In this document: positions 39,576 to 39,932 of the stretch, piece after piece | Position numbering within the stretch: position 1 is the first letter of the stretch | Layout: each line of letters starts with the position of its first letter | Assembly (NCBI GenBank): GCA_013289165.1 | Contig: JABDAL010000005.1 | Span: 846-64,845, forward strand | Reading direction: 5' to 3' | Length of the DNA stretch: 64,000 bases | Origin: Bacteroidota bacterium | GTDB lineage: Bacteria; Bacteroidota; Bacteroidia; JABEUT01 | Notes under the pieces: model-generated | Database searches by the model: none | The model's input: the letters and a program-made list of their open reading frames with translations, nothing else | What the model was told of the DNA's origin: nothing | Program-made: the position numbers and the translations under genes

Positions 39576-39822
39576 TGGGTATAAGTTGTCCCCAATGCCC
39601 CGAACAGGTGATTATAAATAGTCAGCGTGGGGCATTTATCTTATCGCAGTCAAGGTGTTCGACAACCTATTCACAAACAAGTAAAGCCCACGCTGAGACG
39701 TGAGCGATAGACTTATCCTTGTGAATATTTGCCGGGGTGTCGAAACTTTAGGCTGCAAGAAAGCTAACGCTGGTATAGTTAGTATTTTGTGATTACTCCA
39801 TAATTTGATTTTAGAAGGTTAC
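39576..39822 (-). ncRNA. candidate structured 5' leader / cis-regulatory RNA, copy 2
   Basis: Paralog of 3596-3840 with the same helices and a conserved -7-like box at 39825-39832. Confidence 0.5.
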
Positions 39823-39932
39823 CACAAATATAGAAATATTTTATCTTTGACCTTTATAAAACAAAAAACCCCGCTGAATGCGAGGTGTCCTGTTGTAGTA
39901 TCTTGTACTGAGAACACAAATATACTGCAATT

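Follow-up and report, generated by a model that had tools for sequence, protein, structure and literature searches.

A conserved structured 5' leader RNA ahead of exported-protein genes in Bacteroidota, with a possible attenuator-like switch

Classical attenuators of the trp, his and leu type combine a promoter-proximal leader, a small upstream open reading frame (ORF), segments that pair as 1:2, 2:3 or 3:4 and a U-run that follows the 3:4 pairing. Bacteroidota, which lack both Shine-Dalgarno-based initiation and Hfq, are a phylum in which, to our knowledge, few cis-regulatory RNAs have been described. In this study we analyzed a block at positions 39576-39832 of a 64,000-nucleotide stretch of DNA from a Bacteroidota bacterium (assembly GCA_013289165.1, contig JABDAL010000005.1, positions 846 to 64,845; hereafter the window). 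The block lies ahead of the gene of a 228-aa signal-peptide protein, and a preliminary description made from the letters alone had taken it as the second copy of a structured element. All coordinates are those of the window, and the RNA sense of both copies is the minus strand. We interpret the block, with moderate confidence, as a member of a conserved Bacteroidota 5' leader of about 230-260 nt which would be transcribed from a sigma-A type -7 promoter, precede genes for exported proteins and work as an attenuator-like switch. We infer the attenuator mechanism from complementarity and predicted folding.

The leader resembles classical attenuators in the four features named above. However, its ORF has two codons, none of them regulatory, and is located some 35 nt ahead of segment 1; its 2:3 conformer gains about 25 bp (helices P1-P3) and is the thermodynamic ground state. 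It also adds a bulge-loop pseudoknot, belongs to a Bacteroidota host and precedes exported-protein genes rather than biosynthetic ones. With riboswitches it shares a 5' leader backed by covariation, mutually exclusive helices and outputs that look transcriptional in some members and translational in others, but it has no match to a riboswitch of Rfam, stands before genes for surface or secreted proteins and is a rod instead of a junction. The gene set (laminin-G and other cargo of the type IX secretion system (T9SS), outer-membrane proteins (OMPs), lipoproteins and uncharacterized proteins) does not point to one metabolite or ion. The Bacteroidetes motifs of Rfam (Flavo-1, Bacteroidales-1, Bacteroid-trp, Pedo-repair, Chlorobi-1 and others) have the phylum and an origin in comparative analysis in common with the leader, yet none of them scores on the window or at the leader in 10 homologous loci. 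The 5' untranslated region (UTR) of enterobacterial ompA is likewise long, structured and placed before outer-membrane protein genes; its sequence and fold are unrelated, and the leader differs by its invariant switching segments, its U-run and its pseudoknot. Finally, ERIC, Correia and other miniature inverted-repeat transposable elements (MITEs) also give rod-like hairpin RNAs, have ends that resemble the terminal inverted repeats (TIRs) of a nearby element and occur in several copies per genome, whereas the leader has a fixed position and orientation, no target-site duplications (TSDs) and diverged copies that keep pairing by compensatory changes.

A scan of the whole window with Rfam 15 (4227 covariance models) at gathering thresholds returned a tRNA-Thr only, which is also the sole ARAGORN match (anticodon CGU, 57531-57605, minus strand). 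A permissive scan of 39400-40000 (E<=10) gave weak unrelated matches only, some of which stem from a terminator-like hairpin upstream of the promoter, and at gathering threshold nothing was found at the leader in ten homologous loci. One of the homologous loci (L078) contains three Flavo-1 motifs, at 2066-2140, 5478-5560 and 5661-5743, which do not overlap the leader. Literature searches, including one with the literal sequence, returned nothing relevant on such a leader, and neither the Rfam models nor the literature searched held a leader RNA linked to T9SS cargo or outer-membrane protein genes. A 6S or other housekeeping RNA was ruled out by the multi-copy leader position together with the lack of an Rfam match. 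This structured leader RNA family of Bacteroidota is thus apparently undescribed.

As the preliminary description proposed, the block is a diverged second copy of the one at about 3590-3855. Blastn aligned both copies with 75% identity over 299 nt (match at 3575-3863), and copy 1 (3590-3855, minus strand, found by blastn and by the covariance model) lies upstream of a 256-aa protein gene at 2825-3595, whose match to the Pfam family OMP_b-brl is below threshold (24.5 bits against a cut-off of 28.7 bits). A consensus fold of the two sequences already contained 11 compensatory pairs, and the copies fold with z-scores of -3.4 (copy 1) and -3.2 (copy 2) relative to shuffled sequence. The 228-aa protein downstream of copy 2 has no Pfam match and, in a protein homologue search, a sole relative (P0002, 60% identity), whose gene is preceded by a shorter and diverged leader copy adjoining an IS1595 transposase. 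Since this protein has only one relative, the family could not be built through proteins, and two DNA scans were made with invariant stretches chosen from three independent copies. The genome scan (AGCGTGGG..CCCACGCTGA..CGGG) returned mostly high-GC noise and at least 14 true members among the matches listed, from metagenome-assembled genomes (MAGs) labeled Crocinitomicaceae, Flavobacteriaceae, Flavipsychrobacter, Catalimonadaceae, Cytophagaceae, Spirosoma, Bacteroidia and, in one case (L077), 'Akkermansia', which is probably mis-binned. The metagenome scan used the tail 19-mer AACTGTCCCACGCTGATTT alone and gave 50 loci, mostly from lake samples; 47 of these carry the whole block, with GCGTGGGC about 55 nt upstream of the tail, though this stretch was absent from the search pattern. 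In the viral collection the strict pattern had 0 matches, and the 45 matches of a 15-mer tail probe were discarded as chance matches, none of them fitting the covariance model of the rod described below. Within the window, the same model matches exactly twice, at 3666-3795 (94 bits) and 39644-39771 (68.6 bits).

Some of these loci deserve a comment of their own. The leaders and N-termini of L077 and of L085 (Flavipsychrobacter) are near-identical to those of L068 (Crocinitomicaceae), in spite of their assignment to different orders and even phyla, which suggests mis-binning or recent horizontal transfer. In L156 and L158 the 5' and 3' arms of the rod come from different subtypes, as in natural recombinants or assembly chimeras. 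In L025, a Bacteroidales MAG from deer rectum, the rod model has a weak match (33.7 bits) at 2085-2240, on the other strand than the pattern match; this may be a false positive or a remote relative in gut Bacteroidales.

The position of the leader is constant across about 60 homologues. In nearly all of them the tail CCCACGCUGA is preceded by a TAnnTTTG-like box at a distance of about 166-238 nt (192-220 in most), the start codon of a signal-peptide gene follows 56-85 nt downstream of the tail, and the orientation is uniform in about 60 of 60. This fixed placement between promoter and start codon is that expected of a cis-regulatory leader, and the random placement relative to genes which, according to the preliminary description, would speak against a promoter-leader-gene module was not observed. 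The proteins encoded downstream mostly combine Laminin_G_3 with Por_Secre_tail and are T9SS cargo; others are fn3/SprB proteins with Por_Secre_tail, a LpoB/CsgG-like lipoprotein, small lipoproteins, proteins without a recognized domain and the small beta-barrel-like (OMP-like) proteins of the window. We found no conserved neighbor gene or regulator upstream of the leaders; as the upstream genes are unrelated housekeeping genes or have no assigned function, promoter, leader and gene constitute a self-contained unit. The same leader with the signal peptide MKKKSLLLTAVATLGLTAATMAQ was also seen ahead of different mature proteins, in L125, L131, L136, L140 and L166. In copy 2, the Bacteroidetes-type -7 box TATATTTG was read at 39825-39832 and is separated from the ATG (39573-39575) by about 245 nt without a long ORF, in agreement with a structured leader predicted to be transcribed from this promoter into the beta-barrel gene.

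The ground-state fold of the leader is a rod, P1-P2-P3-P4, closed by a helix between its first and last conserved segments (r1 and r4), with a bulge that pairs with the loop of a 3' hairpin (H2). The covariance model of the rod was used to realign 60 sequences, in which an alignment by MAFFT only had mis-registered P2, P3 and H2. In this realignment, 85% of the cells of P1-P4 are standard pairs and the covariation score of the rod is 0.544, against 0.193 in shuffles (0 of 500 reach it) and 0.09-0.13 in slid-partner controls, that is, 4-6 times lower. Both sides of the pair change in 6 of 8 pairs of P1, all 8 of P2 and all 11 of P3a. An unbiased scan of all column pairs recovered P1 and P2, added one pair to P1 and gave no tertiary covariation beyond these helices. 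The same rod appears in the single-sequence folds of every member, and folding of full-length leaders gave z-scores of -6.5 and -6.3. In copy 2, the 5' arms of P1 and P2, with a UAAA junction in between, are at 39738-39758 and their 3' arms, separated by ACCUU, at 39644-39664, both supported by family covariation; the arms of P3, supported by single-sequence folds and covariation, are at 39711-39725 and 39670-39682. These are the helices H3 and H4 of the preliminary description.

Outside the rod, 5 of the 6 pairs of H2 change on both sides. Its loop, GGGRCA, is complementary to a conserved upstream UGUCCC, with 99.7% of cells paired and one position that is U.G, U-A or C-G and never C-A. This is the pairing formerly listed as H1, which in copy 2 joins AAUGCCCC (39629-39636), the equivalent of the family bulge CUGUCCC, with GGGGCAUU (39594-39601), the place of the H2 loop in most members. 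The closing helix joins 5' AUUAGCGU to the tail ACGCUGAU, a pairing that each of the 58 sequences allows; GCGU of r1, unforced by the search patterns, is invariant in all 58 and compatible with ACGC of the tail in each. The helix resumes past the 7-nt bulge CUGUCCC (AAUGCCCC in copy 2), and one pair of this continuation is A-U in 26 sequences, G-C in 24 and G.U in 7, with 0 mismatches. Compensatory changes of the kind that mark a structured cis-regulatory leader are therefore present in the rod, in H2 and in the closing helix. G.U pairs exceed A.C by 211 to 63 (about 3.3 to 1), which indicates that the sense RNA, rather than duplex DNA, is under selection; the same strand bias excluded an inverton or a DNA cruciform.

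Within this fold lie four near-invariant segments: r1, AGCGUUU; r2, AAACGCUCACGC, the 5' arm of P4; r3, AGCGUGGGC, the 3' arm of P4; and r4, the tail CCCACGCUGA, followed in most members by the U-run GAUUUUUU. In copy 2 they are found as CCAGCGUUAGC (39763-39773, which supplies the 5' side of the closing helix and is complementary to r2 as well), GCUCACGU (39698-39705), CAGCGUGGGC (39686-39695, also complementary to the tail) and CCCACGCUGA (39622-39631, able to pair with r1 or r3). AGCGU is common to r1 and r3 and ACGCU to r2 and r4, so that the segments can pair as r2:r3 plus r1:r4, in the rod, or as r1:r2 plus r3:r4, in a terminator-like fold. Each pairing has extensions of its own, with UUU/AAA for r1:r2, GGG/CCC for r3:r4, 8 bp for r2:r3 and 8-9 bp for r1:r4. 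The segment r3 is the same in every member, also in the 47 recovered with a pattern that did not contain it, and r2 varies by transitions only, in such a way that wobble pairing with r3 is kept (U.G to C-G, A-U to G.U). This is the variation expected if r3 must satisfy a second partner. In folding of partial transcripts, RNA cut before r3 adopted the r1:r2 pairing in 13 representatives out of the 14 in which the script placed r1 correctly. When the 3' half was folded by itself, all 18 representatives gave a hairpin whose base is the r3:r4 pairing and which immediately precedes the U-run. Complementarity and half-transcript folding thus provide the 1:2, 2:3 and 3:4 pairings and the U-run after 3:4 of trp-type leaders. 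Moreover, the conservation of the U-run exceeds what the search patterns forced, and a consensus scan flagged P4 with UUUACUUGUU as terminator-like.

These results change the reading of the preliminary description in one respect. Reading both strands, we found all its helices, the CUAAC/GUUAG hairpin and the -7 box where it had placed them, but several of the helices are mutually exclusive alternatives and do not form a single static architecture. The complementarity that it reported between the tail (39622-39631) and CAGCGUGGGC (39686-39695) does exist; nevertheless this pairing of the tail with CAGCGUGGG and the P4 hairpin, formed by GCUCACGU (39698-39705) and GCGUGGGC (39686-39693), exclude each other and cannot co-occur. 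The CUAAC/GUUAG hairpin (39764-39782) overlaps r1 and is retained in copy 1 and L061, with UUAAC/GUUAA in L009.

The start codon of copy 2 offers a further possible output. Its ATG is 18 nt past the last helix and, in the minimum free energy structure, falls in a hairpin at 39573-39597 in which CAUUGGG (39591-39597) pairs with CCCAAUG (39573-39579), the AUG being paired with a probability of 1.00. Analogous start-codon hairpins exist in copy 1, L002 and L061. For the 5' strand of this sequestor to be available, GGGGCAUU must be released from AAUGCCCC, as is the case when r4 pairs with r3. In most members of the family, an A-rich and largely unpaired stretch before the AUG is constant.

We also found a minimal ORF in the 5' part of the leader. 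Around 43 of 62 leaders have a start codon (AUG, in a few UUG), any one codon and UAA or UAG about 20 nt past the -7 box, preceded by an A-rich stretch. In copy 2 it reads AUG-GAG-UAA (39793-39801) and in copy 1 it is at 3820-3828. At least 9 different codons occupy the middle position. At the same place, L157 has GUG-AAA-UAG, which the automated scan did not count. A leader peptide of trp type, with regulatory codons overlapping segment 1, was not found in these leaders, which hold the two-codon ORF only. That the putative start-X-stop ORF is translated and feeds the choice of fold is speculation.

A mechanism of the following kind may be proposed. Pairing of r1 with r2 would form the 5' hairpin of the second fold, and pairing of r3 with r4 would form a 3' hairpin ending at GA and U6-8, like an intrinsic terminator. 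In copies of the window type, r3:r4 pairing would also free GGGGCAUUGGG, so that the start codon becomes sequestered. The rod (2:3) would then permit expression, and the two-hairpin fold (1:2 plus 3:4) would halt transcription and/or block initiation. Which fold is adopted would be decided during transcription, with translation of the minimal ORF, a factor acting on the conserved internal loops, or temperature as candidate inputs.

Several observations weigh against such a switch or against the breadth of the family. At equilibrium the rod is favored over the alternative fold by 12-33 kcal/mol, so the latter must be a co-transcriptional state and needs kinetic trapping. The pairings r1:r2 and r3:r4 show no covariation, as their segments do not vary, and r4 (in the genome scan also r3) was fixed by the search patterns. 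A fixed-column test of r1:r2 and of the helper helix Alt-1 gave no significant covariation over shuffles, and the cognate specificity of Alt-1 is weak (-6.8 against -6.0 kcal/mol, p ~0.008). The r1:r4 helix of the rod abuts the U-run too, so either fold may be the one that terminates, and the U-run of copy 2 itself, CUAUUUAUAAUC (39610-39621), is degenerate. The minimal ORF is missing in about 30% of the members (about 19 of 62, in some subgroups) and lies about 35 nt upstream of r1. Finally, the taxonomic breadth of the family may be inflated by mis-binned MAG contigs.

Copy 2 lies, as had been claimed, inside a TIR-bounded insertion. A non-autonomous element of 3,547 bp (37759-41321 including duplications) splits a gene for an NHL-repeat protein with a T9SS C-terminal domain (CTD), of which the NHL-repeat gene at 35843-37804 and the ORF at 41309-41788 are the two halves. 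The TIRs are 24 nt long, at 37767-37790 (plus strand) and 41290-41313 (minus strand), and are flanked by an 8-bp TSD, TAATTTGG at 37759-37766 and its duplicate at 41314-41321. They were found by reading the junctions of the split gene, as a default inverted-repeat search had missed them; their sequence, GGCAACTANTCANCNTTNGGGACA, has 2 matches against 0.01 expected. Excision of the element with one duplicate restores a 796-aa NHL/T9SS ORF, in keeping with a non-autonomous TIR element. Its GC content is 32.4% (38.7% in the window) and it contains about nine small ORFs and no transposase. The preliminary description gave weight to mobility as the way in which the module spreads. The family is, however, widespread in Bacteroidota and mostly found in unrelated chromosomal neighborhoods, and the mobile element, although real, is incidental to the nature of the block.

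The ends of this element and the IS1595 family nevertheless show some likeness to the leader. The inner core of the TIRs, TGTCCCAAACGCTGA (37776-37790 and 41290-41304), differs from the leader tail TGTCCCACGCTGA (39622-39636 and 3644-3658) by a 2-nt indel only, and TCAGCGTTTG is identical to r1 of many leaders. This may reflect an evolutionary link between the ends of insertion sequences (IS) or MITEs and the leader, or coincidence. Near copy 1, the gene of an IS1595-family transposase (735-1913) is preceded by two direct copies of GGCGTCCGCACGC, at 550-562 and 714-726. The second, which reads GTCCGCACGCTGA and has one base more than the leader tail, stops 6 nt short of the transposase ATG; an inverted copy of this 13-nt repeat was not found downstream of or near the IS1595 gene.

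This likeness is the starting point of one of the readings to be weighed against a switching leader, namely that the block is a domesticated or decaying palindromic MITE of an IS1595-type IS, merely co-transcribed, whose hairpins are a legacy of TIRs. The resemblance of TGTCCCAAACGCTGA to TGTCCCACGCTGA, the identity of TCAGCGTTTG with r1 and the IS1595 transposases which adjoin leader copies, in the window (735-1913) and in L002 (JGI contig), agree with it. Yet about 60 of 60 copies share a fixed orientation and fixed distances to promoter and ATG, the stems diverge while keeping their pairing even within one genome, the excess of G.U over A.C points to selection on the sense RNA, and the block itself, as distinct from the element around copy 2, has no flanking TSDs as a MITE would. 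We consider a MITE origin of this kind highly improbable. We give very little credence to the idea that the block makes an independent trans-acting small RNA of about 210 nt, ending at the U-run, with the downstream gene expressed by leaky read-through. In favor of such an RNA, the block is strongly structured, has a promoter of its own and carries a helix with a U-run at its 3' end, and the tail 19-mer AACTGTCCCACGCTGATTT does occur in isolation from the other leader parts on two metagenome contigs of low GC content (L130, 3832-3850; L145, 490-508). But these two lone 19-mers fit chance expectation, no separate promoter exists between the U-run and the ATG, and a signal-peptide gene invariably follows the block at 56-85 nt.

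Two other readings accept a cis-acting leader and differ in what it does. The internal loops, GAAA opposite NCCUC (P1/P2) and a GGG-containing junction (P2/P3), may be the pocket of a ligand- or protein-sensing leader, a riboswitch or protein aptamer, in which binding would stabilize the rod against the terminator or sequestor fold. Junction nucleotides that are invariant amid covarying helices are typical of aptamers, and the presence of terminator-like outputs in some members and start-sequestering ones in others recalls riboswitch classes with multiple platforms. An aptamer is unlikely in our opinion: the genes encode diverse exported proteins rather than metabolic or transport functions, the leader is one long rod and not a multi-helix junction, tertiary covariation was not detected in the column-pair scan and the data suggest no ligand. 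A purely structural 5' UTR that does not switch and acts, much like that of ompA, in protection from decay, processing or enhancement of translation for highly expressed envelope proteins seems to us quite unlikely. It would be in line with a rod that is the strongly favored equilibrium fold, with downstream genes for surface or secreted proteins and with the constant A-rich region before the AUG in most members, but it leaves unexplained why four invariant segments are mutually complementary with pairing-specific extensions and why a U-run is conserved right after r4.

Regarding the surroundings of copy 2, the 228-aa protein (38889-39575, minus strand, a listed ORF) has a signal peptide and is beta-barrel-like, and the reported ATGA coupling of its gene to a 58-aa ORF with hydrophobic stretches (38716-38892, minus strand) is present. 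Just upstream of the leader promoter, a terminator-like hairpin with a T-run lies at 39868-39886 on the minus strand. The preliminary description mentioned a second complement of TATATTTG at 39914-39921, before a plus-strand ORF; it is located at 39917-39924 instead and, being in minus-strand orientation, it cannot drive that ORF. Another -7 box, TATCTTTG, is found on the plus strand at 39842-39849, back-to-back with the minus-strand box of the leader, and it probably serves the ORF at 39933-40421. Single matches to TAnnTTTG are no more frequent than chance predicts (82 found, 84 expected).

Taking the attenuator-like leader as our working interpretation, a broader picture is possible, though doubtful. 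The leader may represent a new attenuator-type class that co-regulates a dispersed regulon of T9SS cargo, small outer-membrane proteins and lipoproteins, in which a rod of about 40 bp would alternate with a fold of two hairpins, the 3' one of which would either end transcription or hide the start codon. The state would be set by ribosome occupancy of the start-X-stop upstream ORF or by an envelope or secretion factor. The module of promoter, leader and signal peptide would be placed before different genes by shuffling and would travel on IS1595-related elements, in whose inverted repeats the switching sequence recurs. The family provides a defined element for asking how Bacteroidota tune secreted and surface proteins after transcription start. 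Its layout of a rod against two hairpins and its possible start-X-stop ORF depart from classical attenuation, and the likeness between switching segments and transposon ends bears on the origin and spread of regulatory RNAs. Furthermore, the addition of this family to RNA databases would improve the annotation of lake and soil Bacteroidota genomes.

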